Assembly: GCA_965200155.1 (NCBI GenBank)
Contig: CBDATR010000013.1
Coordinates: 1-54,316, forward strand
Direction: 5' to 3'
Source: Nitrosopumilaceae archaeon
GTDB taxonomy: Archaea > Thermoproteota > Nitrososphaeria > Nitrososphaerales > Nitrosopumilaceae
DNA: 54,316 nt
Shown: in pieces, positions 23,685 to 49,277 of the stretch
Numbering within the stretch: the stretch's first letter is position 1
Layout of the letters: every line of letters starts with the position of its first letter
Program-made: the position numbers and the translations under genes
Notes under the pieces: generated by a model
Seen by the model: the letters and a program-made list of their open reading frames with translations, nothing else
Told to the model about the DNA's origin: nothing
The model's database searches: none

Positions 23685-25022
23685 TGATACGGATTTGTAT
23701 GAGTTCACGTGTTTTGATCACATAATAAGATAGAATGCATCCCAGTTTTTTAATTATAATTGCATTCTGGCAGCAACCTCGTTCATTACAGAAAGGCCCT
23801 GAGCCCGCCATCTCTGAACACATGTGGACATGCGGCGCATTACACCCTTTATCTGGCCACTAATCTTGCGGAATACCACTGCGTATCAGAACCGGTTCCA
23901 CTGCTCCGCTGGATTGTTGGTGGGCTCCACACTGTCATATTCTAAGAATACGAACATGCATGGTATGGCCTTATTCAATCCTTTTACCTTCTTTTGCAGT
24001 TCAGTATCATCAACATCACAATACTGATGCATCTGCTCCTGCCTCAAATGAGTGTCGTAATTGCGCGGACGGCCCGTAGCGATTCACGTGCGCTCCGGAT
24101 CAAATCGTTGTCAAGTTTGATCCGGGCGTCCTGATCACCGGGATCGATATAGAATCCTGCATGTAATATACTGGTATCGCGCAATCAATGCGCCCAGATG
24201 GTGCTTCCCACCGTCATCAAACCGGCGATACACAACGTACCTGTCTGTGACTATCGCGCCCTGGTAACCGTTCAAGTATTTGCCCACTACATATGAACTC
24301 CTACTTTTGTATATCATCCACTCTTCGGCCCGCATCCCCCATATCCAGCCACGCTTACCCGCCAGTGATATACCAGTTTCGTCCACATGAATGCTGGGTG
24401 ATTTTTTCATAAATTGTTTCATAAATGATTCGCATGCATCGGCGGCCCTGGCAATTATGTTGTTTACCGCACCCACCGATATATTCAGGCCGAAGAGATC
24501 CCTCGAAATTACAGGTACGCGTTTTATTGGAATCTTTTCCGCACGTAACGCAGTGTTGGCACCACATCTCAAAACCACCACTCTCTGGGACGTCCGCTGC
24601 TGGGGCTAGTTGTTTTTTACCGCACATGCAGGAGGCCATCTCTATAACATGAAGGGTCTCCTCTATTCTGGCTGGTATTAATTCTGTTATGCGTCGTTGT
24701 TTCCAACCACTTTTTGTCATTATATTGCTGCACTCACATTGTGGAGTATGCTCAAAGGTGTGGTGCATTACTCTGTCGGGGTTGTGGGAACGGGAAACCC
24801 CCTTGTGTCCCTTTTGCGCGCTAGCCTTTTTGGCTGATTTCGTACTGGCTTCTGTCTGTTGCTTATTATCTCCCTGTTTCCGCTTCTGTTTCCGCTTCTT
24901 GTACTGGAGGAATTGAAGGGATGGTGGCGAGTGAGCATTCTCATAATATTTAAGTCGCGTTGTGATTACCGCAATTTTCCCCTGTTTTTCTTCTAATTTC
25001 TCATTTAATTCGTTTACATAAT

Positions 25023-25495
25023 GTATGAGTTCACGTGTTTTGATCACTAGACCTTATGCGCAGAATCACTTGCCCAACCTTACACGTTTAAACCAAGTTT
25101 ATAGATGCAAATTATTGGTATGAGTTCACGTGTTTTGATCATACGATGAAACTTGATATGACAATATTTGGTTAAATTGTAGTATGAGCAGACGCCGGCC
25201 ATGAGGAACTGGAAATCTCCGGATACCCTTGCGTCTACCAAGAGAGATCTTGCACACTACAAGGAACGTGTAAGAAGCAGACATAACATAGAAAAAATGC
25301 GTTTAGAAATTATGTAAATGAATTGGAAGGAAAACAAGGGAAAATTGCGGTAATCATGGCTCGGCTTATATGAGAATGCTCACTCTCCACCATCCCTCCA
25401 GTACAAGCATGAGGTTGCTATAAGAATGCAGTTATAATTAAAAAAACTCGGATGCATTCTATCATATCATATGATCAAAACACGTGAACTCATAC
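25023..25495. mobile_element. nested insert: IS66 end + IS5 left end + internally deleted IS66 derivative (25118-25495)
   Basis: 8-bp TSD TACATAAT around the whole insert. Confidence 0.85.
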
Positions 25496-25587
25496 TACAT
25501 AATTCCTAATAATTTGGAAATCTTGTGTGAGATTTTGTATTTCTTCTGTGATGCGTGACATATATGTTTCCAATACTCTCACACGTT

Positions 25588-25762
25588 CCTTGTAATGTGC
25601 AAGATCTTTCTCGGTGGCCGCAAGACGTAGGACAAGGCGGCCCATGGCCTCTGCCTTGTAATGTGCAAGTTCTTTCTTGGTAAACGCAAGTATTATGTCT
25701 CCACGTTTTATCTCTCACTCATTCTCCTTGTAATGTGCAAGTTCTTTCTTGGTAGACGCAAG
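25588..25762 (-). repeat. CRISPR-like mini-array in the IS66 transposase 5' region: 3 x 37-bp repeats, 29- and 35-bp spacers
   Basis: Repeats at 25588-25624, 25654-25690 and 25726-25762; spacers unrelated to each other; sister copies have a single unit. Confidence 0.7.
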
Positions 25763-25911
25763 GGTATCCTAAAGAAGCTTATTTTTTAGTTCCAATTCCT
25801 TATAGGACAGGCGTCTTCTCATTAGATTCTTATTGCAAATTTGGTATTTAAGCAAAATATTGTCATACCAATCTATATCTTAGTTAATGATCAAAACACG
25901 TGAACTCATAC

Positions 25912-26180
25912 GAAAAGTTTCCTATCCGGTGCAAAGGTCATAATTCCATACAGGGGTGCGGAATCACTCACTAAAACTGAAAGGAAATACAACCAAACTG
26001 TATCAAAAAGGCGCATATTAATTGAGCATGTAATTCGAATGCTAAAGGTATATCGTAAATTAAGTCAGGTATATGATGGCAGTCGTGAGGAATTCCAGGA
26101 AGATCTCGTAGTATCCGGGTTGCATAATTTACACATTATGCACAAGCATACCAGGTACAAGAAATTTTTGAAAAATATCT
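25912..26180 (+). pseudogene. IS5-family transposase 3' fragment
   Basis: Homologous to ~9415-9685. Confidence 0.85.
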
Positions 26181-26272
26181 GTATGAGTTCACCTGTGTCT
26201 AAATTTACGCACAACTGATCGCGACAGTTAATGTGATTTGTACACAAGATTCCGGAAGACGTGAACTCATAC
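26181..26272 (-). mobile_element. 92-bp MITE
   Basis: Matches the consensus; no TSD. Confidence 0.95.
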
Positions 26273-26650
26273 CGTGATTCTCCATGCATAAATTAGGTAC
26301 AAAAAACTTATACAAGATATTATCGTAGCATGGAATCTATTTTAAAAATACTAAATGTGTTGACAAATTTGTCCAGTATGGCATGTCTGCTTAATTGTGA
26401 TCCACAATTCTAGTATCCGTTCTGTGCCTAAACTGCTATCATTTGCATGCATAGGTGTACTTGTGTTAACTCTGGACGGCTTTGAAAAATTATGCGTAAT
26501 TTGATTAATTTACTAAAATTAGATTTTTATAACGGCGTTATTATCTACTAAACATGAAGAAGTTTAAGCATACAAATGAAGAGTTGGAGCAAGCAAGGCT
26601 TCTAGCTGAAAAGAGTAAAAAATCTCGATAATGTTACACAAGTTTTTTTA

Positions 26651-27021
26651 CTAAATTTTATTTGACCACTTATTCTCTAGGTCGTAATACAGGTTCAATC
26701 TATCCTTCTTTGGATTCATGTCTTGGTTATACATTTTTGTAAAGAATGCAGCTATTATGCGTTCGTTGTCTTTGTTTAGAAATTGTACACTGTAACTGGT
26801 GCGTTGACCCTTCTCTTCCTGTACAAAACGCACGGTAGATACTTTGTCAACACGAATATGCATATGAGCTGGCCCGTCATTGTGCCCAATCGTGATCCAG
26901 TCTTTTTTATGGGACACGACCAAGCCGCTACGTATCTCGGCCACTGCCCCGTCGCTGCGGATTACAAACAATATGTCAGATATGGACTGTAATCTTCTAG
27001 AATATCTACTAGAGTGGACAT
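26651..27021 (-). pseudogene. ChuX/HutX/HemS-like heme-utilisation protein with an apparent 5' frameshift
   Basis: GAVAEI, HMHI, SYSVQF and FFTK motifs; the ATG at 27021 (TAATG overlap) is one base out of frame with the main ORF. Confidence 0.6.
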
Positions 27022-27299
27022 TATGCCATTCCTACCCCGTCTATGTTGATTATATTGTCTGGATCCATGCGAATGCAGTCGGTGCCCACAGACTTTAGTT
27101 TGGTAAAACTAACTGTCCCTGTGGGTATGACTTTCTCTTGCTGTAACTGATGTATTTTTCCGGAGACTATGTGCTTGTGCTCTTCACAGGTCACGCCTAC
27201 CATATACTCATCGGTCTGGTGTTTGACAGAGACTACATGTGTGGGTGGGTTGGGGCATTGCTTCTTGTTTCGCGTTATTGCGCAACGATCTGGAAACAC
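27021..27299 (-). CDS. small Cys/His-rich hypothetical protein
   Basis: C..CPNPP and TCEEH motifs; coupled to the downstream gene. Confidence 0.65.
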   Translation of the reverse strand: MFPDRCAITRNKKQCPNPPTHVVSVKHQTDEYMVGVTCEEHKHIVSGKIHQLQQEKVIPTGTVSFTKLKSVGTDCIRMDPDNIINIDGVGMA

Positions 27300-27466
27300 G
27301 CCCTAACGGCGATAAATGATACTATAAATGTAAGGTAACAGTTAGCTAATTTATTGTAAATGTTTACTGCATGCATACAGTAACGTGTCTAAATTTCCTG
27401 CCGATGAACTCTTTTCTACAATGGTATTATTTATCTGTATTTTCAAGGGGGCGCTGTAAAGAAATC

Positions 27467-27609
27467 GTATGAGTTCACGTCTTCCGGAATATTAGTATGA
27501 GTTCACGTCTTCCGGAATCTTATGCACAAATTACATTAACTGTCGCGATCAGTTGTGCGTAAATTTAGACACAGGTGAACTCATACGAATATTATGCACA
27601 AATCACATT
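27467..27609 (+). mobile_element. MITE nested in a MITE (inner 27495-27586, TSD GAATATTA)
   Basis: Outer MITE resumes after the inner copy and is then cut by IS5. Confidence 0.92.
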
Positions 27610-29061
27610 AGACTTTATGCGCAGAATCACTTGCCCCACCTTACACGTTTAAACCAAGTTTATAGGTGCAAATGATTGGCCTAACACAAACACGTGTGTG
27701 AAATAGAAAAGTTAAGGTCTAATCTTGTGGTATCCAGTATGCTAAAAGTAGAAGAACTCACCAAGGAGCAGTTAATAGCAGAGTACAACCTTCTACGCAC
27801 CGAGTCTGAGGCCGAAGTAACAAACCTGTGTGGAAAAGTTGACAGCTTGTGTGGGGAAATTGACAGTTTACGTGGGAAAAATGACAGCTTGTGTGGAGAA
27901 ATTGACAGTTTACGTGGGAAAAATGACAGCTTGCACGCCAAACTTGAAGCACAAACAAAGAATTCCCTGGTTTCAAATCTTGATGTTGTAATAGAACGCA
28001 AGGATCAGCTGCATTCGCTGACCGGATGCTCTCCGGAAGAGTTTACTTGGATACTGACCAGATTCAAGGAATACGTAGAATCTCTGGAAGGTGATGATGC
28101 ACGACGATTCCTAGAACTTACAAATGATCGTGGACATGTTAACAAATTGTATGAGTTCACGTGTTTTGATCATTCACTAAGATATAGATTGGTATGGCAA
28201 TATTTTACTTAAATACCAAATTTGCAATAAGAATCTAATGAGAAGACGCCGGTCCTATAAGGAATTGGAACTGGAAAATAAACTTCTTCAGGATACCCTT
28301 GCGTCTACCGAGAAAGATCTTGCACATTACAAGGAACGTATGAGAGTATTGGAAGCATATGTGTCCCGCACCATAAAAGAAATACGAAATCTCACACAAG
28401 ATTTCCAAATTATTAGGAATTATGTAAATGAATTGAAAGAGGAATTGGTAGAAAAAGACAGGAAAATTGCGGTATTCACAACGCGACTTAAATATTATGA
28501 GAATGCTCACTCGCCACCATCCCTTCAATCCCTCCAGTACAAGAAGCGAAAACAGGAGGAGCAGAAGCGAAAACAGGGAGATAATAAGCAACAGACAGAA
28601 GCCAGTACTAAATCAGCCAAAAAGGCTGGCGCGCAAAAGGGACACAAGGGGGTTTCTCGTTCCCACAACCCCGGCAGAGTAGTGCATCACACCTTTGAGC
28701 ATACTCCACTATGTGAGTGCGGCAATATGATGACAAAAATTGGTTGGAAACAACGACACATAACGGAATTAATACCCGCCAAAATAGAGGAGACCCTTCA
28801 TGTGATAGAAATGGCTGCATGCAAGTGCGGCAAAAAACAACTGGCCCCAGCAGCTGGCGTCCCAAAGAGTGGTAGTTTTGGGGTTCAATTATGCGGTGCC
28901 ATCACTGCATTGCGTGCGGAAAAGATTCCAATAAAACGCATACCTGTAATTTCGAAGGATCTCTTCGGCCTGAATATATCTGTGGGTGCAGTAAACAACA
29001 TAATTGCCAGGGCCGCCGATGCATGTGAATCATTTATGGAAACAATTCATGAGAATATAAT

Positions 29062-30635
29062 AGACCTTATGCGCATGATTGACAGTAACAGCCCATGTTG
29101 CTTCAAACTGGGGTGTATTTTATGGCACACAATCCGTCAAGCATGAACAATGTGAATGGCACCTGCCAGCACTAACGTATGTCGTGTAGTGGGGTAACCG
29201 GATCTTGATGAAGTATATCGGAAGTGAGCTAAACGGTTGTATGAGTTCACCTGTGTCTAAATTTACGCACAACTGATAGAACCGGTTACCAGTTAATGTG
29301 ATTTGTGCACAAGATTCCGGAAGACATGAACTCATACCATTAATTTAGTGGATTTTCTGATGAGTAATATTCGAATTATAATAACACGGAAATTATGGAC
29401 AGATATTTTTCAAGAATTTCTTGTACCTGGTATGCTTGTGCATAATGTGTAAATTATGCAACCCAGATACTACGAGTAGATCTTCCCGGAATTCCTCACG
29501 ACTGCCATCATATACCTGACTTAATCTACGATATACCTTTAGCATTCGAATTACATTCTCGATTAATATGCGCCTTTTTGATACATATTGGTTGTATTTC
29601 CTTTCAGTTTTAGTGAGTGATTCCCTACCCCTGTATGGAATTATGACCTTTGCGCCGGGTAGGAAGTCTTTCATACCCTGGTATCCTGCATCTGCTATTA
29701 CTGTTATCTTATCGGATGGTGGCGTGGTTGATTCTTTTAGGGACTTGCCCCATTTGCCACCGAGGGGAATATCATTCTTGAATATACCATAATCGTGTCT
29801 TTTTCCCTCATATACTCCACTTACGTGAATTATCAGTCTTTTCTTGTTTGATGTTATCTGTACGTTATACGTGTGGGTTTTTTGTTTACCAGAGTACATT
29901 GCCTCCTGATTTTTTTTAGGACGTTGTACGCGTACATGTGTCCCGTCAGTCTTTATCTCCCCTCCGGCTCGGCCTGGAACAATTTCCTTAAAGTCGGGTG
30001 TTGACTTGATTTGTGATATTGCTTTTGCAACGGTATCGGCCGTTGGGAGTATCTTGATCAGTCCCTGCTTTGTAAACTGGATGTAACGGCATATGTTTGA
30101 CTGGTTTATCTTGAGTATTGCTGCCAGCAGCTCCTGCTTTGTATTGCAGCGCAGGCGTATCAGTGTAACTAAGAGTACATGCCTGACCGGAAATTTGTTC
30201 ACGTGCCCGCGATCATTTGTAAGTTCTAAGAATCGCCGTGCATCATCGCCTTCCAGGGACTCTACGTATTCTGTGAATCTGATTAGTATCCATTTGAACT
30301 CTTCCGGAGTGCATCCGGTCAGGGAATGAAGCTGATCCTTGCGTTCTATGATGTCATCGAGATTTGAAACGAGGGCATTCTTTGTTTGAGCTTCAAGTTT
30401 GGCGTGCAGGTTTGTTACTTCGGCCTCGGACCTGGTGCGTAGCCGGTAGTACTCTGTGACTAACTGCTCCTTGGTGAGTTCTGCTTTTAGCATACCTGGT
30501 ATTACAAAATTAGGTCTTAACTTTTCTGTTTCACACGAGTCTGTGGGAAAACCCATGATACTAGGTCAATTGTTCGTATCTAACAACTTGTTTTAGACGT
30601 GCAGGGTGGGAGAAGTGATTCTGCGCATACGGTCT
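29062..30635 (-). mobile_element. IS5-family element, copy 2, with 3-bp TSD AAT; contains a scarred MITE at 29239-29337
   Basis: Near-identical to 8414-10023. Confidence 0.9.
29393..30556 (-). CDS. IS5-family transposase, open reading frame intact
   Basis: Same DDE motifs as 8493-9692. Confidence 0.88.
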   Translation of the reverse strand: MGFPTDSCETEKLRPNFVIPGMLKAELTKEQLVTEYYRLRTRSEAEVTNLHAKLEAQTKNALVSNLDDIIERKDQLHSLTGCTPEEFKWILIRFTEYVESLEGDDARRFLELTNDRGHVNKFPVRHVLLVTLIRLRCNTKQELLAAILKINQSNICRYIQFTKQGLIKILPTADTVAKAISQIKSTPDFKEIVPGRAGGEIKTDGTHVRVQRPKKNQEAMYSGKQKTHTYNVQITSNKKRLIIHVSGVYEGKRHDYGIFKNDIPLGGKWGKSLKESTTPPSDKITVIADAGYQGMKDFLPGAKVIIPYRGRESLTKTERKYNQYVSKRRILIENVIRMLKVYRRLSQVYDGSREEFREDLLVVSGLHNLHIMHKHTRYKKFLKNICP

Positions 30636-31888
30636 AATAAAATCACCCAGCATACATGTGGACGAAACTGGTATATCACTGGCGGGTAGGCGTGGTTGGG
30701 TATGGGGGATGCGAGCCGAAGAGTGGATGATATACAAAAGTAGGAGTTCAAATGTAGTGAACAAATACCTGAACGGTTACCAGGGAGCGATAGTAACGGA
30801 CAGGTACGTTGTGTACCGCCGGTTTGATGACGGTGGGAAGCACCAGTTGTGTTGGGCGCATTTATTGCGCGATACCCAGGCATTACATGCAGGATTCTAT
30901 ATTGATCCCGGTGCTCAGGACACCCGGATCAAACTTGACAACGACCTGAAAGGATTGTTCCGGAGCGCACGGGAATCCCTGAATCACTGCGGGCCGTCCG
31001 CGCAATTACGACACTCATTTGAGACAGGAGCAGATGCATCAGTACTGTGATGTTGATGATACTGAACTGCAAAAGAAGGTAAAAGGATTGAATAAGGCCA
31101 TACCAGGCATGTTCGTATTCTTAGAATATGACAGTGTAGAGCCCACCAACAATCCAGCGGAGCAGTGGAACCGGTTCTGATACGCAGTGGTATTCCGCAA
31201 GATTAGTGACCAGATAAAAGGTGGTGAAAGGGCCATGCGCCGCATGTCCACATTCGTATCATGTGTTCAGACATGGAGGGCTCAGGGCCTTTCTGTAATG
31301 AACGAGGTTGCTGCCAGAATGCAGTTATAATTAAAAAAACTGGGATGTATTCTATCTTATTATGTGATCAAAACACGTGAACTCATACCATCCGCATGCT
31401 AAAGGTGTACCGTAGATTAAGTCAGGTATATGATGGTAGTCGTGATGAATTCCGGGAAGATCTAATTGTAGTATCCGGATTGCATAACCTGCACATTATG
31501 CAAACCAGATACAAGAAATTCCTGAAAAATATATGTCCATAGGCTTCCATAATACGAATAAGTTTTATGGTAATCATTTATGCCACTCAAGCAATCACAG
31601 CAGGACTTGTAACACACGCTGGGGCTGGTGGGCACCATTTCCACTGGTCAGGACCATCATTCCAATAGTCCTCTGGTTGGACTGTTACGTAACAGTCCCT
31701 TGTTTGTTCATGTTTACCGGATTGTGTCATAAAATACACCCTAATTTGAAGCGACCTAAACAATTACTGTCAATCATGCGCATAAGGTCTATTAAGTTAC
31801 ACCACTTTGTATTTAAACATTACAAGGGAAATCAGGGGAATTATATAGTTAAGTTACGTTTATAAAAGCGAATCAATATCATGACAAT

Positions 31889-32791
31889 ATGCAACAAGCA
31901 CCAGGCAAGTCATTCAGAAAGGGAGTCACCATGGCCGAATTGTTCCAAATGTTCCCGGATGAAAAGACCGCCATGAAGTGGTTCGAAACTACTCTCTGGA
32001 AGGACGGTAGAAAATGCCCCCGATGCGGTTCCAGTATGACGTCCGAGTCCGCACATAGAACAATGCCGTACCGCTGTGTAGACTGTAAGCAGTTCTTTAG
32101 TGTTAAAATGGGGACCATAATGGAACGTTCTAAAATATCATACCAGTCTTGGGCGATAGCAACATACCTGTTTGCCACTAATCTAAAGGGTGTCAGTTCC
32201 ATGAAGCTGCACCGTGACTTGGGTATCACACAGAAATCAGCGTGGTTCCTTGTACATCGACTAAGAGAGTCATGGGGAACATTGGTCAGTGATAAGATGG
32301 AAGGGCCAGTGGAGATCGATGAGGTATACATTGGTGGCAAAGAGAAGAATAAGCACCATTCTAGAAAAGGCGCCACAGGTAAAACCGCGGTTGTAGGCAT
32401 CAAGGATAGAAAGACGGGAACCATTCTCGCCAAGCCTGTTTCCGAGACTACAGCGGCACGTCTCGGTCAATTTAATCAAGATAATGCCGAGGCGGATGCT
32501 GTCAAATACACGGATGACAACATGGCTTACAAATCGTTAAAACACCATGAGAGTGTGAAGCACAGTGTAGGTGAATATGTCAAAGAACAGGCTCACACGA
32601 ATAGAACCGGTTACAGTCGTTCTGGGCATTGTTGAAACGGGGGTATTACGGCATATTCCACCATGTTTCCGCGAAACACTTACACCGGTATGTTAACGAA
32701 TTCGCCGGGAGATTCAACATTAGAGTACTAGACACCATTTCAATGATGGAATCGATAACACGTTCCATGACTGGTCACAGGCTGACATATC
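31889..32791 (+). pseudogene. IS1595-family transposase, frameshifted and truncated
   Basis: Zn ribbon CPRC..CVDC, VEIDEVYIGG, YTDD, HTN/SFWALLKR and YVNEF motifs; frameshift at 32603-32614. Confidence 0.9.
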
Positions 32792-32883
32792 GTATGAGTT
32801 CACGTCTTCCGGAATCTTGTGCACAAATCACATTAACTGTCGCGATCAGTTGTGCGTAAATTTAGACACAGGTGAACTCATAC
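32792..32883 (+). mobile_element. 92-bp MITE joining truncated IS1595 and IS481
   Basis: Matches the consensus; no TSD, and both neighbours are clipped. Confidence 0.95.
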
Positions 32884-33947
32884 AAAGTAAGTCCGCTTAG
32901 GATCCGGCGTACAGTAGTTCAGATTGCACAAGCCAGATGGTAAAGAGAATAACAGAGGAATCAATAGTTAGACAGCGCAAAAGAGGCGTTGCCGCAACCA
33001 AAATAGCTCAAGACCTGAAACAAGACACGTACGAAGATTGTGAACCAGAGGACGGGAACGACTCGAGTAAAGATGGGTAGGCCCATGATACCAATCACCA
33101 CCACCCAGATACGAATGGTAACTGAAGCATACAGCAAGGATCCCGCCGGAGTAGTACGTATTGCAAAGAGGCTTAGACATAATACATATCGCGCAGTATA
33201 TCACATAATGAAAAAGAACGGCACGACAGTCTCATCACCTGCAAAGTCAGAGTGGGTACACTATGAGCGTAAATATTCCAATGCAATGTGGCACGTAGAC
33301 TGGCATGTCATGAAAAGATGAGCGCTTCGAGGGACTGAATCTCATAGATGATGCATCTAGGTGCATCGTCGGGGCGGCACTATTTGAGCATGCAACCTCA
33401 GAGAAGTATGAGTTCACGTCTTCCGGAATCTTGTGCACAAATCACATTAACTGTCGCGATCAGTTGTGCGTAAATTTAGACACAGGTGAACTCATACTCA
33501 GAGAACACCGTTCTATTACTGAGACTGGCAATGAAACGATTCGGCGCCCCTGCATCTCGGATAACGGCGCGTGTTTCGTAGGACAATAAAAGGGCAAAAA
33601 GAACTGGAAACCAACACTATTCAAGGAAGAACTGCTGGATCAAGACATCATACTAATCAATTCCAGACCATACCACCCGCAGACAAATAGCAAACTGGAG
33701 CGCTTCCATAGAACGATTGAGGACTAGGGGACTCTTATTTAAGAGTCCAACGAGATATGGCATTATGACAGTCTCCGGGATTATGTGGACTACTACAATG
33801 AGAGAAGATTGCACTTCTCACTGGATATAGATAACGACGAAACACCGCTTCAGGAATAAAAAGGCGACCCAGACAATTAGGGCAAATGATGCAAAATGGA
33901 CGGAGCGAGATGCCAATGACTAGCGGACCGACTTTTCATACATTACA
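32884..33947 (+). mobile_element. IS481-family remnant with a MITE at 33406-33497 (TSD TCAGAGAA)
   Basis: WHVDW, DDASR and GKLERF fragments; end ...CATACATTACA. Confidence 0.88.
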
Positions 33948-34002: not shown

Positions 34003-34668
34003 ATGAAATACGCGATCGTGGGATTTATTCTTGTTTTGTCTTTTATCCCCGCATACGGCCAGGAAGAAGAGGACGATATTACATTCTGCTCGTTTACGGA
34101 GTTTGATCCTGAATGTAGTCCGTCCGGCTGGGTCCAGTTTCTACTGGGAGATGTAGTAATAGCCCTAACTCTGGGTTACCTGCTATACCGCCTGGGTAAT
34201 AATAACATAAAAACTCTGGAACTCACTACCAAAAAAATCGAGAAGAGCCAGAGGTACTTGGACAAAATCACGAAGGAAGAGGAGGAACACAAAAGAAAGA
34301 TAACCATATTCGCCACGCAATCAGTTAAGAACTACTTTGGTGTCATTCTCATAATCATAGGTCTCATGAACCGCGCCCTAACAAAGGGGACAACTAGGGA
34401 GAGCATACCGGCCAAGATATGGGAACAGGAAAAGGATCTGGGACGCACAATAAAACACCTGCGAGATACAATACAGATATTTGTAGGATACGGAGATCCC
34501 ATGATCATTGAACAGATACGACGACTCTTAGACGAGCTTGAGAAAATAGATCCCGCCAGTGGTATAGGCGAGGGATTTCCCAACTATACAAGTCTAAAAG
34601 AAACGATAAAGGACTTGTCCAAAAAGATGGATGAAAGTACAAGTCCAGATGATCTAGTCATAAAATAA
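34003..34668 (+). CDS. hypothetical membrane protein with signal peptide
   Basis: MKYAIVGFILVLSFIPAYG signal, TM segment, helical C-terminus; upstream ORF extension is IS481 sequence. Confidence 0.7.
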   Translation: MKYAIVGFILVLSFIPAYGQEEEDDITFCSFTEFDPECSPSGWVQFLLGDVVIALTLGYLLYRLGNNNIKTLELTTKKIEKSQRYLDKITKEEEEHKRKITIFATQSVKNYFGVILIIIGLMNRALTKGTTRESIPAKIWEQEKDLGRTIKHLRDTIQIFVGYGDPMIIEQIRRLLDELEKIDPASGIGEGFPNYTSLKETIKDLSKKMDESTSPDDLVIK

Positions 34669-36414: not shown

Positions 36415-37890
36415 ATGAGCCAGCGACGCAGTAGCAGGGTGTCCATACGAACAACTTTGGAACCCATGTACAGGTCAGTAGATCTTCAGGGTCGCGTTAT
36501 AGATTGCAACTACAAATATGCTCGTATGCTAGGTTACATAAAAGACGAGATAATAGGTATGTCCATATTTGATCATACGCCAAAGGATCAGCATCATGTC
36601 CTTACGGGCATATTCGAGCGCTGGAAGGCCCATAAACCAATAAACAACCGCAGGTTTCCGCTAATAACAAAGGCTGGTGTACCCTTTGATGTATTGGTTA
36701 CCGTCGAGGGTGTCTTTGGTGATGATGGTAAGGTTGTCCGGAGTAATACAACCCTGCTGGATTTTGAGGAGGTCCACCAACTACAGAATCTAATCAAACT
36801 AAGCAAGTATGAGAGCCTGTATGAGAATTCTCCGGACATGTACTTCACGGTAAATGTGGAAGGTGTGATCGTGGACTGTAATCGGGCATATGAGGAGAAG
36901 ATGGGATATACCAAATCGGAAATTATTGGAAGGAATTTTGCGGATCATGTATCTGACAGGAGCGTATCGCAGATACTGATTAATCTGGCACAATGGAGAG
37001 TCAATGGCGTATGTAAGAGTGTGGATGTGTGGGTTAGAGCACAGGATGATACCGAATTCCCCGTACGAGTGACCCCTACAAATCTGCATGCAGAGGATGG
37101 AGCACTGCTGGGTCGCAATGTCGTAATTCAGGATCTTACAGAGATACAAAAAACACAAGATCAGCTCAAGGAACGAAAGGAGATAGAACAAATGAAGGAC
37201 GAATTCCTAACCGGAATCACGCATGAGCTCAAGACTCCACTGACTCCCATAATTGGATTTGCGCAGGCATTGAGCAAGCAGGGCATGCTTGGCGACCTTA
37301 ACAAAAAGCAGGAGGAAGCGGTCCGTATAATAGTGAATAATGCCGTCCACTTGCGCAAACTGGTGATGGATTTGCTGGATATACACAAACTGGAGTTGGG
37401 GAAAATGAAATTCGACATCAAGGAGTTTGATCTTGAAAAGATGATGGCAGACTTTATGTCATCTATGGACTATACGTATAAGGAAAAGAGGGTGGAGTTG
37501 ACACTGGACATGAAATGCAAAGGCAAGGTAATAGGAGACTCGTACCGCATATCAGAGATATTGTTGAATTTGACATACAATGCACTGGACTTTGTTCCCC
37601 CAAAGACTGGCAAGGTACACATAGTTGTATCAAAAGATGACAAGTATTTGCACTTTTCTGTGACTGATAACGGGGTGGGTATTCCCAAAGACAAGCAGTC
37701 TCAGCTATTCAACAAGTTTTATCAAGTATCCACTACAGTAACCCGTATGCACGGCGGAACCGGCTTGGGCCTCTCCATATGCAAAGGTTTAGTAGATGGA
37801 ATGGGTGGCTCAATAAGGGTGGATAGTACTGTGGGCGTAGGTAGCAAATTCTATTTCTCCATATTACAGAAGGAGGTAGTGGCTCCATGA
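36415..37890 (+). CDS. PAS-PAS sensor histidine kinase
   Basis: Two PAS repeats, HELKTPL H-box, N, DNGVG and GGTGLGL boxes. Confidence 0.93.
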   Translation: MSQRRSSRVSIRTTLEPMYRSVDLQGRVIDCNYKYARMLGYIKDEIIGMSIFDHTPKDQHHVLTGIFERWKAHKPINNRRFPLITKAGVPFDVLVTVEGVFGDDGKVVRSNTTLLDFEEVHQLQNLIKLSKYESLYENSPDMYFTVNVEGVIVDCNRAYEEKMGYTKSEIIGRNFADHVSDRSVSQILINLAQWRVNGVCKSVDVWVRAQDDTEFPVRVTPTNLHAEDGALLGRNVVIQDLTEIQKTQDQLKERKEIEQMKDEFLTGITHELKTPLTPIIGFAQALSKQGMLGDLNKKQEEAVRIIVNNAVHLRKLVMDLLDIHKLELGKMKFDIKEFDLEKMMADFMSSMDYTYKEKRVELTLDMKCKGKVIGDSYRISEILLNLTYNALDFVPPKTGKVHIVVSKDDKYLHFSVTDNGVGIPKDKQSQLFNKFYQVSTTVTRMHGGTGLGLSICKGLVDGMGGSIRVDSTVGVGSKFYFSILQKEVVAP

Positions 37891-38258
37891 AGCTTCTCGG
37901 TGTGGACGACAACCCGGATATACTCAAGTTTGTACAGATGACCGTAGAGATGATGGGTCACGAGTTTAATAGTGCAGGCGGAGGGAAAGAGGGACTGGAG
38001 AAGATACGCACCAGAGAGTATGACATGGTATTCCTGGACTTGTCTATGCCTGACTTTTCTGGACTAGATGTCATAGATGCACTGGAGAAGGACGGAATAC
38101 TTAGGGAGTGTAATATAATACTGTTCACGGCGTCATACCTTGGCGTATCCGATTTGGAGAAGAGTCTTTCAGAAAGAGGAGTTCTGGATGTTCTTACAAA
38201 ACCCGCAGACATTGATCAGATAATGGAAAAGATACAGCAGGTAGAGGATAAACTCTAG
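37887..38258 (+). CDS. single-domain response regulator (receiver)
   Basis: VDD, FLDLSMP, TA and KP motifs. Confidence 0.92.
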   Translation: MKLLGVDDNPDILKFVQMTVEMMGHEFNSAGGGKEGLEKIRTREYDMVFLDLSMPDFSGLDVIDALEKDGILRECNIILFTASYLGVSDLEKSLSERGVLDVLTKPADIDQIMEKIQQVEDKL

Positions 38259-38386: not shown

Positions 38387-38610
38387 TTTTGATTCATGAC
38401 GAGTCTCCCTGCATGATCTTGGCATAATCCAAGAGATACTAATCTTGTGTCATCATAACACGGAAACGCATGATCAGATTGGCGGATGCCATTCCGGTAC
38501 ACCACAAGCTTGATGTCTGTACCTGCTCAACTACGACAGACGTAGTCGTAAATGGGATCCGCCAACCCGATAAAAAAAAGTTATTAAGAATACCAAGATA
38601 TTACATGATA

Positions 38611-38919
38611 ATGACAATAGTAGCGGCCGGTCCCAAGGACAAGTTCCCCCCAGGCAGCATGACCAAGGTTGATGTCGATGGCCTGGATGTGCTTTTGGTG
38701 AACAAGGATGGAGAGTATTATGCAGTGGATGATACCTGCACCCATGCTGGCGCCAGCTTGGCCGAGGGTCGCCTGGACGGATGTAATCTAGTGTGTGGCT
38801 GGCACGGGGCGGAATTTGACTGTACCAGTGGCAAACTGGTAAAGTTTCCTGCCAAGATACGAGATCTTGGGACGTATACAGTCTCCACTGATGATGATAT
38901 CATATACATCGAGAAGTAA
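38611..38919 (+). CDS. Rieske [2Fe-2S] ferredoxin
   Basis: CTH...CGWHG motifs; start 38605 or 38611. Confidence 0.9.
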   Translation: MTIVAAGPKDKFPPGSMTKVDVDGLDVLLVNKDGEYYAVDDTCTHAGASLAEGRLDGCNLVCGWHGAEFDCTSGKLVKFPAKIRDLGTYTVSTDDDIIYIEK

Positions 38920-39201
38920 CAGATTACCCAATGTAATATTTTAGATTAATAGTGGCTGGCTGTACTTGACAGACCCCAATCATCGTGTAAACCAGACGTA
39001 ATTCGCATCAGACATACGAATACTGGAGTCCGCCATGAGAGCCACCAAAGAAAATCACGAATTCGCCTGTATCTAGTACGACGTATAGTGGTTGGGGAAG
39101 GCGTGAGCTCGTACGATTCACATGTTATAGAAAAACTGTCGAGTGAATCAATATGCCAAAACTGTAATGCATACACTCTCATATATCATTTCAGTCACAG
39201 A

Positions 39202-40266
39202 ATGATTATGTGCAGGGAAGCCATACTGTACGAAAAAATCCAGGACGGCGGGGTGCGCTGTACTGCCTGTGCCAGGTACTGCGTATTGGCTCCCAGTCAA
39301 GTGGGGTTGTGCGGCATCCGGGAGAATATAGCAGGCAAGCTGAACTTGGCAGTATATGGACGGGTCATAGCCGGTCATGTAGATCCCATAGAGAAGAAAC
39401 CAGTCACCCACTATATGCCCGGCTCCAAGATATACTCCATAGCCACCACCGGATGTAACTGGCTTTGCCGGTATTGCCAGAATCACGATATCAGCCAGAG
39501 AAGAAAGGTGGAAGGGGCAGTCATGTCCCCCCAAGAGGTAGCCCAAGCGGCTATACGGAATGGCGCCGATGGTATAGCCTACACATATAACGAACCATCC
39601 ATATTCATTGAGTTTGCCCGGGACTGCGGATTAGCAGCCAGAAAGATGGGACTATTCAATGTCTTTGTGTCCAATGGTTATGATACCCCCCAGTCGGTGG
39701 GAATGATGGGAGAGTTTCTTGATTCCATTACCATAGACTTTAAGGGTAACGCCGAGCCGGAATTTGCAAGAAAGTATGTGGGTATTCCGGATCCACAACC
39801 CATATTCGATACAATTCTGGATATTCACAGCAGGACAAAAATCCACATCGAGATAACAAATCTGGTAATACCCACAGTGGGAGATAGCCTGGAGTATGCT
39901 CGTCGACTGTGTGTTTTTGTGCACGACAATCTGGGTCCTGACACACCCATTCACTTTCTGCGCTTTCACCCGGACTACAAAATGACTGATTTCGGTTATA
40001 CGCCTGTACGTACACTGGAACAGCATCATCAGATAGCAACAGAGACCGGACTCAGATATGCATATGTGGGCAACGTTCCCGGTCACCCATACGAGCACAC
40101 GTACTGCCCCGGGTGTGGCAATATTGTAGTTGGTCGGTATGGCTTTGACATAGAATCATGGAATCTGGACAAGGCAAACCGTTGCATAAAATGTGGCTAC
40201 CACATACACATGATCGGTAACCTCTCACCCAACCGTACCAGGAACCGCTTTCATATGGTTCAATGA
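39202..40266 (+). CDS. amrS: AmmeMemoRadiSam radical SAM enzyme
   Basis: CxxCxxxC, DPIEKKP, GCNWLCRYCQN, YTYNEP, RFHPDY and YVGNVPG motifs. Confidence 0.88.
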   Translation: MIMCREAILYEKIQDGGVRCTACARYCVLAPSQVGLCGIRENIAGKLNLAVYGRVIAGHVDPIEKKPVTHYMPGSKIYSIATTGCNWLCRYCQNHDISQRRKVEGAVMSPQEVAQAAIRNGADGIAYTYNEPSIFIEFARDCGLAARKMGLFNVFVSNGYDTPQSVGMMGEFLDSITIDFKGNAEPEFARKYVGIPDPQPIFDTILDIHSRTKIHIEITNLVIPTVGDSLEYARRLCVFVHDNLGPDTPIHFLRFHPDYKMTDFGYTPVRTLEQHHQIATETGLRYAYVGNVPGHPYEHTYCPGCGNIVVGRYGFDIESWNLDKANRCIKCGYHIHMIGNLSPNRTRNRFHMVQ

Positions 40267-40295: not shown

Positions 40296-40532
40296 TTATT
40301 GTGGACTCAGGAGTATCTTTGGTTTATTGGGCGTATCATGATGACATTTTTTCCCACATACAGGACATCGTTTGCGATCCAGCGCCACACACTGGCATAT
40401 ATGAGACTCCATATATGATTCTGCAACCTTTGTGTATTCACCGGTACCATTGCAAAAATTACACTGAAGCTGTAGTAGTTTTATCGTTCCTGTGCCCTTA
40501 CACACTGCACATACCTTTGACATACATGACAA
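40296..40532 (-). CDS. small Zn-finger protein (CxxCxGxG repeats)
   Basis: CAVCKGTG, CNFCNGTG and CPVCGKKCHH motifs. Confidence 0.7.
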   Translation of the reverse strand: MSCMSKVCAVCKGTGTIKLLQLQCNFCNGTGEYTKVAESYMESHICQCVALDRKRCPVCGKKCHHDTPNKPKILLSPQ

Positions 40533-43344: not shown

Positions 43345-43479
43345 ACTACATTTGCATAACAAGTATTACTCCAAGGCTAACGGGATCATTCCCTGCCGGT
43401 TTGAGATATGTTTGCAGGATTCCATTACACGAAAACGCGTCCCAATTCGGAGCAACCTGAATGATTACCTAAAAAGTCA

Positions 43480-45135
43480 CTATTTATGCGAGAAGACTGC
43501 CTGCCGGGCCGATTCCTTGCGGGCATACCCAAATCGCACAAACTGCATCATGGAATAGTCAGGGAGATAGTCATAGTACGGCTCCACCATACAATCCAGT
43601 CGGGGCATACTGTTCTCATCAAATTCCTCACCCTTGAACGGTGGGCCCGGAACCAGTACTATTATGGATATGGCAGAGTCCGCTGGCACCCAGTGTACCC
43701 GTGGTGCATCAGGTACATTTGGAACATACGAAACTGTCGTGCCGTCCCATGTTGCCGCTCCCAGACCCATCAGGTGTATGGCCCCGGAATCCAGCAGTAG
43801 TGCATCAGCCTTCTCCAGTATTATTCCCCCAGTGGCATCCAGTGAGCGGGGTTTGTCTCCCGAACCAGACAGGGCGGGCAGTTGTACGGGTCCGGGCATG
43901 TCTGAGGTGGCCAACGTTACAGGGTCACGTACCAAATGCAATCGTACGCTACCGGAATCTATTACGCTACGATTATTCGATTCCAGTGTCTGGAAGGGAG
44001 CGGTAGTATCGGACTTTGTAAAGCCCAGCGACCGGACAAACCGGCGTATGGCTTCTGGCTGTATACCCCGGCGCTTGAGGCCCTCCAATGTGGGAAGGCG
44101 GGGATCATCATAGCTGGCCATATGTCCCCTTTCCAGGAGCGGTCTTATCAGACGCTTTGATACTGGCATATCCTGCAGGGCCAGCCTCGAGAAGGATCCT
44201 ATATACGGCTGGCGCAAGCCCAGCGATTCCTGTATGGAGTGGTACAGTTGGTCCCTCATCTCGTACTCCTTGGAGCGGAATGCGTGGGTTACCCCGTCCA
44301 AGCTGTCCTCAACGGCTATGGCCAAATCATAACTTGGCCAAGTGCGATACTGATTCCCCAGCAATGGATGCTTCTCGTCGGTGATTCGGAATAGTACCGG
44401 ATCACGCATGGTAGTATTGGGAGAGCCCATATCTCCACGATACCGTAGTATGGCGGTGCCGGGCTTGTACTTTGTCTGCATGCGCGCCCAGCGAGAGTGA
44501 TTCTCCTCGGCCCCCAGCTTGCTGCACTTGCATGATATCTTGCTACGGCGGTTGGCAGATATGTCCTCCCGGTTACATGTACACACGTATGCCCTGCCTA
44601 TGTGTATCAGCTCTGCCGCCTTCTGGTGTAATGTATCCATGTCATCGGACGTATTCTTGATATGATCAAAATCTATTCCCAGCCACTCAAGACCAACCTT
44701 TATGGCGGCATAGTACTCCAGCCGCTCCGCGGCGGGATTGGTATCGTCCATGCGCAGAATTATCTTGCCCCCATACATCATGGCGTACTGATAATTTATG
44801 ATTGCCGCCTTGGCGTGTCCTATGTGCGGGTAGCCACTGGGCTCCGGCGGAAACCGCGTAATGACGCCACCCTGTATGGCACCCGGCAGTGGGGGCAATT
44901 CATTCTCTGCACGCTTGAGAGTAGGGGCTGGCCGGAACCGTTCTAGTTCCTTTTTGCCCATGCCGTTCACCTGCTCCACTATATCGTTTATGATTGGTAT
45001 CAGATTCTTGGCGTCTTTGCGCAAATCCGGCCTTGTACCCAACAGCTTGGCCAGTACTATTTTGGATGTGGTGGAGCCATGCGATGCCGCATTGGCCAGG
45101 GCAATTGCCCGTATGTCTTTATTGACACCTTCCAA
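43480..45135 (-). CDS. gltX: glutamate--tRNA ligase (archaeal type)
   Basis: RFPPEP, HIGH, DDTNP, VSKR, DDPRLPT and QFVRFGY motifs. Confidence 0.95.
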   Translation of the reverse strand: MEGVNKDIRAIALANAASHGSTTSKIVLAKLLGTRPDLRKDAKNLIPIINDIVEQVNGMGKKELERFRPAPTLKRAENELPPLPGAIQGGVITRFPPEPSGYPHIGHAKAAIINYQYAMMYGGKIILRMDDTNPAAERLEYYAAIKVGLEWLGIDFDHIKNTSDDMDTLHQKAAELIHIGRAYVCTCNREDISANRRSKISCKCSKLGAEENHSRWARMQTKYKPGTAILRYRGDMGSPNTTMRDPVLFRITDEKHPLLGNQYRTWPSYDLAIAVEDSLDGVTHAFRSKEYEMRDQLYHSIQESLGLRQPYIGSFSRLALQDMPVSKRLIRPLLERGHMASYDDPRLPTLEGLKRRGIQPEAIRRFVRSLGFTKSDTTAPFQTLESNNRSVIDSGSVRLHLVRDPVTLATSDMPGPVQLPALSGSGDKPRSLDATGGIILEKADALLLDSGAIHLMGLGAATWDGTTVSYVPNVPDAPRVHWVPADSAISIIVLVPGPPFKGEEFDENSMPRLDCMVEPYYDYLPDYSMMQFVRFGYARKESARQAVFSHK

Positions 45136-46122
45136 CTATATGCTCCTCTTCACCACAAAATCCAGGAGTGTTTCCAGGTTATCCTTGTGGCGTCCGGAAT
45201 ACTCCCCTATTGCCCGTCGCGCAGCATTGGCGTATGACCCGGCGCGATTCCGCACAGTATCCTCTATACCCAGATGGCGTATGACATCAACTGCGCCAGA
45301 TATGTCCTGGGGTGATGCATTATGGTTACCCAGTGTATTACGTATGAGGTTCAACTCATCACCGGTTGCTGTATCCAGTGCCATCAGTATGGGCAGGGAT
45401 TTTTTACCCTCGCGTATGTCGTTACCGACGGGCTTTTTTGTCACACGGGTATCTCCCACGACGCCCAAGAGATCATCAGTTATCTGGAACGCGGTTCCCA
45501 GGTTCAGGCCAAAGGACGTGGCATTGGCAAGATCTCTTGATGACGCACCCGCGCATATGGCGCCCATGGCGCAGGACACCTCAAAGAGGGCGGATGTCTT
45601 TTTGCGTATCATGGACGTGTACAGCGCCAGCGAGGGCATGGTTTTACTTGTACCCATGGCGATATCCATGCATTGACCTTCGCAAATGTCCACGCATGCA
45701 ACTGCCAGTCTGTCCAACAGATCCGCCCGTATTTGTGCAGGCAGGGATGATTTTGAGAGCGACTGGAACGCCTTGGAGAAGAGTGTATCGCCAGCCAGTA
45801 ATGCCAGGGACATGTCATACTTTTTGTGGGTAGTTGGTACACCGTGACGGGTGTCGTCGTTGTCCATTATATCATCATGGACTAGGGAAAAGTTATGAAC
45901 CATCTCCACGGCTCCGGCCGCGGCCATTGCAGCGGACTCGCTACCCCCCAGCATCTGGCATGTCTCAAGAACCATATACGGACGCAGTCGCTTACCGCCG
46001 TGCACAATCAAGTGAGATGCTGCCTCATACAGTATCTCCGGCGTGCCCAGAATTTCCCCACTCAGATACCTGTTTATGGACTGGACCGATTCCGGGGACA
46101 CACTCAGGGCAATAACCTCCAC
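45136..46122 (-). CDS. geranylgeranyl diphosphate / polyprenyl synthase
   Basis: GGKRLRP, HDDIMD, GQ, KKT and FQITDD motifs; start uncertain (GTG 46122). Confidence 0.9.
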   Translation of the reverse strand: MEVIALSVSPESVQSINRYLSGEILGTPEILYEAASHLIVHGGKRLRPYMVLETCQMLGGSESAAMAAAGAVEMVHNFSLVHDDIMDNDDTRHGVPTTHKKYDMSLALLAGDTLFSKAFQSLSKSSLPAQIRADLLDRLAVACVDICEGQCMDIAMGTSKTMPSLALYTSMIRKKTSALFEVSCAMGAICAGASSRDLANATSFGLNLGTAFQITDDLLGVVGDTRVTKKPVGNDIREGKKSLPILMALDTATGDELNLIRNTLGNHNASPQDISGAVDVIRHLGIEDTVRNRAGSYANAARRAIGEYSGRHKDNLETLLDFVVKRSI

Positions 46123-46718
46123 TGATCCCCATTCATGTGGTGCGAGACCATCTCCAGCAGGAGACCGGTGATGCCGGACTCCAACCACGGCCCTATGGGG
46201 TATGTGTCGGGAACCTTGATTCTTGGTAACAGTGCAAGCGCCAGCAGCATCCATGGACAGTACAGCATGGAATCGGCAATACACATGTCTGACGCGGAGA
46301 CGTACTTTGTCTGGGTTATCTCCTGGACGTTGGGTTTTGCCGACTGCCCCCTTATTATTCCCAGCAGGGTGCCGCATATCTCATTCTCCGAGCCGCGATC
46401 ATCATCGGTCACATGATACTCAAACTTCATGGAATAATCCAGGTGACAGTCCAGTCCCAACTCTTCCGGAAGACGCCGCCGGGCAGCATCCACATAGCTC
46501 TCATCTTTTCTGGGATGACTGGCGACGGTACCATCCCACTTGTCCGGCCAGAGCATCTTGGATGGTGCGCGTCTGGTAAGCAGGAGACGGCCCATATCAT
46601 CAAAGAGTAATGTCGTAAAGGCGCGATGCAGTATTCCCTTACCCTGATGGCACCGTGTCTTCTCCTCGTAGCCTGTGGGGTTATCGTTACGATCCACCAG
46701 TATCAAATATTCAGTCAT
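46104..46718 (-). CDS. idi: type 1 isopentenyl-diphosphate delta-isomerase (Nudix fold)
   Basis: LHRAF, SHP, RRLPEELG, ENEIC and CPW motifs. Confidence 0.88.
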   Translation of the reverse strand: MTEYLILVDRNDNPTGYEEKTRCHQGKGILHRAFTTLLFDDMGRLLLTRRAPSKMLWPDKWDGTVASHPRKDESYVDAARRRLPEELGLDCHLDYSMKFEYHVTDDDRGSENEICGTLLGIIRGQSAKPNVQEITQTKYVSASDMCIADSMLYCPWMLLALALLPRIKVPDTYPIGPWLESGITGLLLEMVSHHMNGDQWRLLP

Positions 46719-47533
46719 ACTACTCCTGGAAACAGCGTTCCTGTTATATTTCCATGTAATGCATCTCTAATGCACCGGGGCTTGTTACCGTTCAAGATTA
46801 CTGCAGCTACTCCGCATTGCGCAATTTTGTCGGCCGACACTACCTTGCGCCTCATGCCCCCGGTTACATCACTCCCTTTACCGGAGTCCGGCTCCCTGAC
46901 AACTCCCTCTGCCACCAGGCTCCTGGCCATGGTATTATCCACCCGTTCCATCACCTCTCCGCCCCTATACAGCCCATCCACATTGGTGGCAAATATGGCA
47001 AGGCGCGGACGCAGTATATGTGAGAGTAATATCATGATGTCATCGCCGGATAGTATGTACGAGTATGGTGTGTCACGTGTATCATATAACATGGCATCGC
47101 CAAAGGTGACAGGGCACATTCCCGCCTGTGCAATGCGTTTCATCTCATGTACCCGTGATATGGTAGTATCAGAGCATAGCAGTGAAGATTCATGGGACAG
47201 TTTTGTATCATACATGAATACGGATGGCGGACAGGCATACGGTCGCATTCCATTCTCAAGCATCGTGTCCAGTATGAGACTGTTCAACCGCACCATGGAA
47301 TTCTTGACCGCGGCCAGACCCTCTAGGCTGTACTGGCGGGGCATACTGTGCATATCATATAGGACAGAATAGTGGTGTCCGAAAGAGCCACCGCCATGCA
47401 CCACCATGACGGGTTCCCCCTGATCTATTATTTCAGATACTGTACTGGACAAAGCCGCCACCGCCTCCTTCTGAAAGGAGAGCGGAATTGACTTGTCAGT
47501 AATTACTGAGCCACCAAGCTTGAGTAAAATCAC
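46715..47533 (-). CDS. isopentenyl phosphate kinase
   Basis: LKLGGSVITDK, HGGGSFGH, SGDD and DVTGGM motifs; likely GTG start at 47533. Confidence 0.88.
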   Translation of the reverse strand: MILLKLGGSVITDKSIPLSFQKEAVAALSSTVSEIIDQGEPVMVVHGGGSFGHHYSVLYDMHSMPRQYSLEGLAAVKNSMVRLNSLILDTMLENGMRPYACPPSVFMYDTKLSHESSLLCSDTTISRVHEMKRIAQAGMCPVTFGDAMLYDTRDTPYSYILSGDDIMILLSHILRPRLAIFATNVDGLYRGGEVMERVDNTMARSLVAEGVVREPDSGKGSDVTGGMRRKVVSADKIAQCGVAAVILNGNKPRCIRDALHGNITGTLFPGVV

Positions 47534-47663
47534 AATTATGAACAGACCCAGTTCAATTATTAACTTGTCGGAAAAATACTGCGGTATTAATGGAATTCCC
47601 GTAGCGGCGATCATAAGTCTTGGTGACAAATTTCCGTAAATTATCACTGGATGGCCAACAGGA

Positions 47664-49277
47664 GTATGAGTTCACGTCTTCCGGAATCTTGTGCACAAAT
47701 CACATTAACTGTCGCGATCAGTTGTGCGTAAATTTAGACACAGGTGAACCCATACCTTGCGTCTACCAAGAAAGAACTTGCACATTACAAGGCAGGGGCC
47801 ATGGGCAACATGCGCCTTGTCCTACGTCTTGCGGCCACCGAGAAAGATCTTGCACATTACAAGGAACGTGTGAGAGTATTGGAAGCATATGTGTCACGCA
47901 CCACAAAAGAAATACGAAATCTCACACAAGATTTCCAAATTATTATAAATTATGTAAATGAATTGGAAAAGAAATTAAAAGAAAAACAGGGGAAAATTGC
48001 GGTACTCACAACGCGACTTAAATATTATGAGAATGCTCACTCGCCACCATCCCTTCAATCCCTCCAGTACAAGAAGCGAAAACAGGGAGATAATAAGAAA
48101 CAGAAAGAAGCCAGTACTAAATCAGCCAAAAAGGCTGGCGCTCAAAAGGGACACAAGGGGGTTTCCCGTTCCCACAACCCCGACAGAGTAATGCGCCACA
48201 CCTTTGAGCATACTCCACAATGTGAGTGCAGCAATATAATGACAAAAAGTGGTTGGAAACAACGACGCATAACAGAATTAATACCAGCAAGAATAGAGGA
48301 GACCCTTCATGTGATAGAGATGGCTGCATGCAAGTGCGGCAAAAAACAACTAGCCCCAGCAGCGGGCGTCCCAGAGAGTGGCGGTTTTGAGATGTGGTGC
48401 CATCACTGCATTACGTGCGGAAAAGATTCCAATAAAGCGCATACCTGTAATTTCGAGGGATCTCTTCGGCCTGAATATATCGGTGGGTGCGGTAAACAAC
48501 ATAATTGCCAGGGCCGCCGATGCATGCGAATCATTTATGGAAACAATTTATGAAAAAATCACCCAGCATTCATGTGGACGAAACTGGTATATCACTGGCG
48601 GGTAAGCGTGGCTGGATATGGGGGGTGCGGGCCGAAGAGTGGATGATATACAAAAGTAGGAGTTCATATGTAGTGGGCAAATACCTGAACGGTTACCAGG
48701 GCGCGATAGTCACAGACAGGTACGCCGTGTGTTACCGGTTTGATGACGGTGGGAAGCACCAGTTGTGTTGGGCGCATTTATTGCGCGATACCAGTATATT
48801 ACATGCAGGATTCTATATCGATCCCGGTGATCAGGACGCCCGGATCAAACTTGACAACGATTTGATCCGGAGCGCACGTGAATCGCTGCGGGCCGTCCGC
48901 GCAATTACGACACTCATTTGAGGCAGGAGCAGATGCATCAGTATTGTGATGTTGATGATACTGAACTGCAAAAGAAGGTAAAAGGATTGAATAAGGCCAT
49001 ACCAGGCATGTTCGTATTCCTAGAATATGACAGTGTGGAGCCCACCAACAATCCAGCGGAGCAGTGGAACCGGTTCTGATACGCAGTGGTATTCCGCAAG
49101 ATTAGTGGTCAGATAAAGGGTGGTGAAAGGGCCATGCGCCGCATGTCCACATGTGTTCAGACATGGAGGGCTCAGGGCCTTTCTGTAATGAACGAGGTTA
49201 CTGCCAGAATGCAATTATAATTAAAAAACTGGGATGCATTCTATCTTATTATGTGATCAAAACACGTGAACTCATAC
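47664..49277 (+). mobile_element. MITE (47664-47755) fused to a 5'-truncated IS66 pseudogene
   Basis: MITE replaces the left end; right TIR ends at 49277; 37-bp repeat pair at 47756-47864. Confidence 0.9.

Follow-up and report, generated by a model that had tools for sequence, protein, structure and literature searches.

In this study we analysed a window of 54,316 nucleotides (contig CBDATR010000013.1, assembly GCA_965200155.1) from a member of the archaeal family Nitrosopumilaceae, in which two inverted copies of an IS66-family insertion sequence (IS) enclose a segment of 25,581 bp (25.6 kb) with gltX, isoprenoid genes and other host genes, the whole being framed by a direct repeat of 8 bp. 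This duplication at two outward-facing right ends is a real feature, and a transposase reaction on the two right ends very probably produced it. For the segment as a whole we favour, with a probability of roughly 0.6, a copy-and-paste composite transposition, probably short-range, that would have brought in the bulk of today's cargo in a single step and whose donor copy would have been lost later.

The octamer ACGGATTT occurs in direct orientation on either side of the segment, and each copy directly adjoins a terminal inverted repeat whose first letters are GTATGAGTTCAC. The borders consist of the following features:

23689..23696, plus strand: left copy of the target duplication ACGGATTT, read from the sequence
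23697..25911, minus strand: left IS66 copy with its right end outward, frameshifted and interrupted by a nested element; assigned by a PF03050 fragment and alignment to a degenerate subfamily
25023..25495, no strand assigned: nested non-autonomous element of 473 bp that has IS66-type ends and is flanked by a separate 8-bp duplication TACATAAT, from the end motif scan
47756..49277, plus strand: right IS66 copy with its right end outward and a broken reading frame
49278..49285, plus strand: right copy of the target duplication ACGGATTT, read from the sequence

Both outer ends belong to the right-end subtype and face outward. In Tn5 and Tn10, inverted IS copies likewise have like ends on their two outer sides, and a target duplication surrounds the entire unit. 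Given this layout and the perfect repeat of 24 bp over which left and right ends of the IS66 element are identical, same-type outer ends are not anomalous. An earlier note on this DNA had placed the repeat directly outside both ends and had taken the borders to be right ends of inverted IS66 copies, in agreement with the sequence and with our scan of end subtypes; it had also argued that a simple single insertion does not suffice, which holds, as one insertion cannot place the duplication beside two right ends.

To judge the weight of the octamer, the genome was scanned for the shared end motif, which yielded 1,376 ends on 18 of the 51 contigs: 588 L and 604 M ends, i.e., the two ends of a miniature inverted-repeat transposable element (MITE) of 92 bp, 89 right and 73 left IS66 ends and 22 unassigned ones. 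Nearly half of them (662 of 1,376) form simple MITE pairs with matching 8-mers, and matching 8-mers were also found at 17 left-right IS66 pairs, so that 8 bp is the duplication length of this family, as had been claimed before. The 8-mer ACGGATTT as such is not rare, with four matches in the window vs. 1.6 expected, and it is its position at two ends that counts; two unrelated target sites would match with a probability of about 4.9e-5. After the ends in simple MITE pairs and those with a repeated flanking 8-mer had been set aside, 498 ends remained, forming 1,245 facing pairs 3-60 kb apart. Among these a single match was observed, that of the segment itself, vs. 0.06 expected.

Gene order in related genomes was compared in nine congeners and nine genomes from other genera of the family. 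The genes flanking the segment are:

22749..23684, plus strand: ftsZ-like gene, left flank outside the element (Pfam Tubulin/FtsZ, weak TIGR00065 match)
49416..49988, minus strand: rpl31e and rpl39e, right flank outside the element (profile matches and synteny)

In all nine congeners the ftsZ-like gene adjoins rpl31e tail to tail, in line with the expectation, voiced in the earlier note, that their 3' regions should adjoin in relatives. They are also adjacent in seven of the nine genomes from other genera, the remaining two being one without an ftsZ match and one with 3 kb between the genes, and the spacer amounts to 0-47 bp in the seven genomes in which it was measured. Because the flanks are adjacent in the congeners, the duplication marks a formerly contiguous site, and it thus lies outside the outer ends of the unit at a once-contiguous site, as in a composite transposon. 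In the four congeners with both genes on one contig, gltX is located 325-907 kb away from ftsZ.

It is very unlikely that the octamer match is due to chance or that the assembly took a wrong path through repeats. Genome-wide, about six chance pairs of any geometry are expected, for which reason no weight was given to cross-contig pairs lacking an empty site, and the 12.8 kb of repeats in the segment, the fact that no examined contig spans it, and overlapping variant contigs elsewhere in the assembly would all suit such an error. A chance pair, however, would not land on ancestrally adjacent flanks, and without reads assembly software would not generate a duplication next to an IS right end. 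Contigs from four metagenome runs were compared over 20 kb. In three of the four runs, from two studies, the right junction is present without difference on an 832-bp contig (49250-50081), and the junction between ipk and the neighbouring MITE as well as the kinase-Rieske-amrS run are each covered by one exact contig.

The bounding elements gave PF03050 and zf-IS66 matches in the fragments within the window, while NF033517 stayed below its cut-off on the fragments; intact copies elsewhere in the genome give stop-free PF03050 matches, which identifies the transposase as a member of the IS66 family. The full element measures 1,674 bp with one open reading frame (ORF) of 508 amino acids, and the accessory gene tnpB (PF05717) was not found in the 87.6%-complete genome. 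A single ORF and the lack of TnpB fit the ISBst12 group as defined in the accessible part of PMC12898284. Two copies of one IS thus bracket other genes. Since both bounding copies are frameshifted or interrupted today and do not encode a transposase themselves, the enzyme presumably acted in trans; 5 of 12 full-length copies examined have intact frames of 508-515 amino acids. In a tree of 41 copies the bounding copies fall into one degenerate subfamily of 11 copies (support 43, which is low), and they are among each other's top two matches over 1,300 bp. Many deletions of 5-9 bp are common to the degenerate copies and suggest a signature of repair or slippage.

Same-type ends have been used elsewhere in this genome. 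Pairs with single-copy flanks and 8-bp duplications comprise four L-L and one M-M case, and for three of these five the empty site was recovered in repeat siblings (two L-L with 44 and 26 hits, one M-M with 46 hits). In addition, there are several pairs of a MITE end with an IS66 right end that bear duplications, one of which has multiplied as a whole. Full-length copies were sought for 21 composites, the clearest of which is C24:502960-505680, a unit of 2,721 bp with two inverted MITEs (L-L) and a new 8-bp duplication, which carries two host ORFs of 143 and 296 amino acids, the latter of which we take to be radical-SAM-like from its motif. Its donor, C10:257770-260490, is 100% identical, and the left MITE of the donor keeps its own duplication. 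A genome-wide search for two-copy segments (31 rows) revealed two more donor-plus-copy pairs, C9:133232 / C24:53643 and C43:110523 / C24:186303. A candidate of 6.8 kb (C9:129571-136395) was rejected as a composite; its 8-mer proved to be the own duplication of a MITE.

The interior of the segment contains the following features:

25912..33947, no strand assigned: nest of mobile DNA with IS5-like (DDE_Tnp_4) pieces and one full copy, an IS1595-like copy, a 1-kb repeat and 92-bp MITEs
26295-27460: the single unique island inside the nest
26651..27299, minus strand: two small host genes, one HutX-like and one hypothetical, from a separate ancestral locus
28149-31388: third IS66 inside the nest
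34003..34668, plus strand: conserved hypothetical gene, located downstream of the two-component pair in congeners, here upstream and flipped
36415..38258, plus strand: PAS histidine kinase and response regulator, of local origin: in congeners they are found 7-15 kb beyond rpl31e
38470..38919, plus strand: Rieske ferredoxin, a neighbour of gltX in five congeners, flipped here
39088-40266, plus strand: amrS, at a distant locus in congeners
40296-40532, minus strand: small Cys-rich gene, at another distant locus in congeners
43480..47533, minus strand: gltX, polyprenyl (geranylgeranyl diphosphate, GGPP) synthase, type I idi and ipk, a single-copy housekeeping block cut from mvk
47664..47755, plus strand: 92-bp MITE replacing the left end of the right IS66 copy; its flanks do not match

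Profile searches supported the gene assignments made before (gltX, GGPPS-idi-ipk, amrS and the two-component pair). The host cargo is single-copy by sequence, with a depth equal to that of the flank. The start of ipk lies near 47533, and an AT-rich box about 25-30 bp before it may serve as a new promoter of the operon whose last gene is gltX. At the gltX loci examined in G004, G005 and G008 (G003 was also compared), ipk is unmatched between idi and mvk and may have been lost or have diverged.

In the congeners two blocks can be recognized, fum-miaB-ftsZ-rpl31e-Nudix-Y-Z-ABC-kinase-regulator-hypothetical and Rieske-gltX-synthase-idi-ipk-mvk-m1, and the cargo consists of the far end of the first, most of the second and genes from at least three other places. 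In the genome under study a joint at C25:12081/12082 brings the Nudix gene up against mvk, and on C34 (182.6-184.0 kb) m1 is found beside the left neighbours of fum. As three junctions tie the two blocks together, gene order suggests that this lineage had already fused the ftsZ block with the gltX block when the move took place, and that the donor lay near the target, a reading founded on distant relatives. The donor joint could be that of Nudix and mvk or the stretch upstream of rpl39e. The orientation of kinase and gltX relative to ftsZ is kept as in three of the four testable congeners. G008, in which kinase and gltX lie 10 kb apart, was considered as the ancestral order of the cargo and rejected, as it is not the sister of this genome.

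On this basis we propose that two broken, inverted IS66 copies bracketed a stretch of chromosome, that an intact copy elsewhere supplied transposase in trans and that the two outer right ends were paired. The unit would then have entered the short gap that separates the convergent ftsZ-like and rpl31e genes, with duplication of 8 bp. By analogy with the three smaller composites whose donors survive, the reaction would have been of the copy-and-paste type, and the donor copy would have been deleted afterwards; with the donor kept until that deletion, gltX and the isoprenoid genes would never have been lost. The donor was probably nearby, given the position of the kinase pair in congeners and the two further junctions that join neighbours of the blocks, and insertions and small flips inside the segment probably took place both before and after the move.

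Several observations weigh against transposition of the whole segment in one step. Repeated DNA makes up 12,761 of 25,581 bp, i.e., half of the segment is debris of mobile elements, and the inner IS66-type ends mostly lack a partner duplication, which shows that the segment was remodelled. The same follows from the hypothetical and Rieske genes, which are flipped against their ancestral neighbours. The host cargo is a mosaic of at least five congener loci and colinear in no relative; in a tree of eight window proteins the genome forms a deep branch in its genus with no close relative among the nine congeners, so that all comparisons of gene order were made with distant relatives. No second copy of the segment was found in the genome and no diagnostic donor scar at the Nudix-mvk joint or upstream of rpl39e: the former looks old, as the stop codons abut, the C-termini are intact and an IS remnant is missing, and the 130 bp upstream of ipk (47534-47663) are unrelated to mvk. 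The inner-end 8-mers, tried for tracing the donor, gave no unique partner, and for 160 partnerless ends near conserved genes the ancestrally adjacent pairs differ at 4-8 of the 8 positions. The largest proven composite elsewhere in the genome measures 2.7 kb; C10:470699-472607, tried as a right-right precedent, turned out to be a divergent IS66 instead, and the tree of IS66 copies rejected the bounding copies as sisters, leaving them members of the same subfamily only. As to the contigs, the left junction lay outside the stretch compared, the right-junction contig enters the IS end by only 28 letters and thus falls under our 31-letter bridging rule, and one of the runs may be the source of the assembly. 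Finally, recombination between IS66 copies has flipped 9 kb of host DNA with ychF-kae1 against bud32 at C24:489684/499429, as evident from an inverted 8-bp pair and confirmed by outgroup order.

This last case makes it a real alternative that a small composite captured the host DNA later: a right-end/right-end composite made of IS alone would have been inserted first, and nearby host DNA would have been drawn in by inversions or by integration of circles via internal repeats. Duplication pairs have indeed been separated by IS66-copy recombination here; the partners of others now lie 138 kb apart or on different contigs, and their empty site could still be recovered. Of 25 ancestral adjacencies that were broken, 14 remain within 40 kb, the proven composites are shorter than 3 kb, and on the rpl31e-rpl39e flank the next repeat is reached after just about 750 bp of unique DNA. 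Later capture, however, still needs the right-right composite plus at least two or three further events, and capture by two inversions predicts inverted cargo, whereas kinase and gltX have retained the orientation prevailing in the testable congeners. Moreover, no inner pair of IS66-family ends with a matching duplication was found around host cargo. We therefore regard this course of events as unlikely, though it deserves serious attention, and return to composite transposition as the preferred reading. The earlier note had invoked a giant composite transposition; of this proposal, the transposase reaction on two right ends very likely stands, while movement of the full 25.6 kb in a single step is the preferred reading but is weakened by the mosaic cargo, the extent of the repeats, the missing donor scar and the proven flip of host DNA elsewhere in the genome.

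Alternatively, the duplication might stem from a simple IS66 insertion, the left end of which was later swapped for a right end within the 24-bp repeat while rearrangements filled the middle. Left and right ends are identical over this length and about 180 such ends exist in the genome, but 24 bp is short for homologous recombination and no other right-right pair of this IS66 with single-copy flanks was found in the genome. Same-type MITE-end pairs share only about 12 bp with the partner end and are better explained by transposase. An end swap is accordingly very unlikely.

Rather tentatively, and at somewhat less than even odds, the roughly 1,400 IS66-type ends may be regarded as an interchangeable pool, in which the single-ORF transposase can join facing ends in any combination, of like or unlike type, at distances of 0.3 to 25 kb and copies the intervening host DNA to a new site, with later deletion of the donor relocating essential genes. 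If so, the segment would show gltX and the isoprenoid genes of an archaeon relocated naturally in a single step, and from the genome one could read which ends and which sizes of cargo the poorly characterised IS66 reaction accepts.

Compared with Tn5 and Tn10, the cargo is single-copy host housekeeping DNA instead of accessory genes and the unit is 25.6 kb long; both IS copies are broken, and the event was a one-off without a second copy. Furthermore, Tn5 moves by cut-and-paste, whereas the small composites that retained their donors indicate copy-and-paste here. Composite transposons in the general sense are defined in the accessible part of PMC10969869, which also describes mobilisation by flanking MITEs; the 2.7-kb C24/C10 composite is similar in that the intervening DNA is carried along by non-autonomous ends mobilised in trans, while the cases given there are bacterial resistance cassettes and integrons, unlike the archaeal host genes. 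For E. coli with activated IS1, the available text of Kanai et al. (PMC12065110) reports that 25 of 40 duplications were composite transpositions, that the median over all duplications was 40 kb, that inverted pairs were seen and that well-known composites are typically <10 kb. In that system, too, the stretch of chromosome enclosed by any two neighbouring IS copies is mobilised; it is an engineered laboratory bacterium with IS1, whereas ours is a natural archaeal record of IS66 with the donor copy gone. ISDge4 of the ISBst12 group, as portrayed in the accessible part of PMC12898284, has a single ORF, an 8-bp direct repeat, ends starting with GT and a retained donor, all of which has counterparts here, the donor being kept in the small composites; distinct from that description are the perfect 24-bp inverted repeat, the 508-residue transposase and about 600 dependent 92-bp MITEs, and composite moves do not figure in that part of the paper. 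A literature search with poor coverage of subscription journals found no natural archaeal IS66 composite with housekeeping genes. The event is of a known kind, unusual in size and cargo, and does not represent a new kind of element.

As a natural case with an intact duplication, confirmed ancestral adjacency and essential single-copy cargo, the segment illustrates how IS expansion reorders a symbiont genome without loss of vital genes. It also constrains the chemistry of IS66, termed "insufficiently characterised" in the accessible part of PMC12898284, in that same-type ends would be accepted, ends would work in trans and donors would be retained. With intact transposase copies and defined ends at hand, the points on end choice are directly testable.

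Because an archaeal amoA gene is present and the DNA of the genome is found in sponge metagenome runs, the host is a sponge-associated ammonia-oxidising archaeon. Its genome (G000 in our set) comprises 51 contigs. In metagenome contigs, a 25-nucleotide pattern from the left flank had no match and the FtsZ-like protein no relative that would point to a closer strain, and no empty allele was among the rows listed for the four runs, contigs being prone to drop rare variants. IS66 was found in all nine congeners searched. The notion of an exceptionally scrambled genome was not supported: 628 of 1,061 adjacent pairs (59%) are colinear with outgroup G012, vs. 131 of 214 (61%) for sampled G005. Samples of other congeners (67-81%) are biased to conserved loci, shadow ORFs were kept in and the G006 stretches were few.

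Several further observations concern the assembly and its repeats. No IS66-type end occurs on 33 of the 51 contigs, many of which have a guanine-plus-cytosine content of 35-41% vs. 45-49% in the large contigs; contamination of the bin by such small contigs is possible. Several contigs overlap others at 96-100% identity, the pair C12/C22 differing by one IS66 insertion, and are strain variants. Two cross-contig 8-mer pairs link the same two regions, C10:461483-465168 and C24:140833-143334, consistent with IS66 recombination plus a small flip, which outgroup order does not confirm. The 1-kb repeat at 35310-36363 has about 90 copies and a 15-bp duplication; from its motif it is presumably IS481-like. 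Repeat-spacer units of about 36 bp are located in the 5' part of both bounding IS66 copies (25625-25760 and 47756-47830), the inserts being CRISPR-like; there are two in the left copy, one of them common to the right copy. A second MITE-like family of about 133 bp and about 26 copies is represented at 50042-50175 and 15736-15869 and, together with an adjoining repeat, brackets 14482-50699 in inverted orientation at 69-78% identity.

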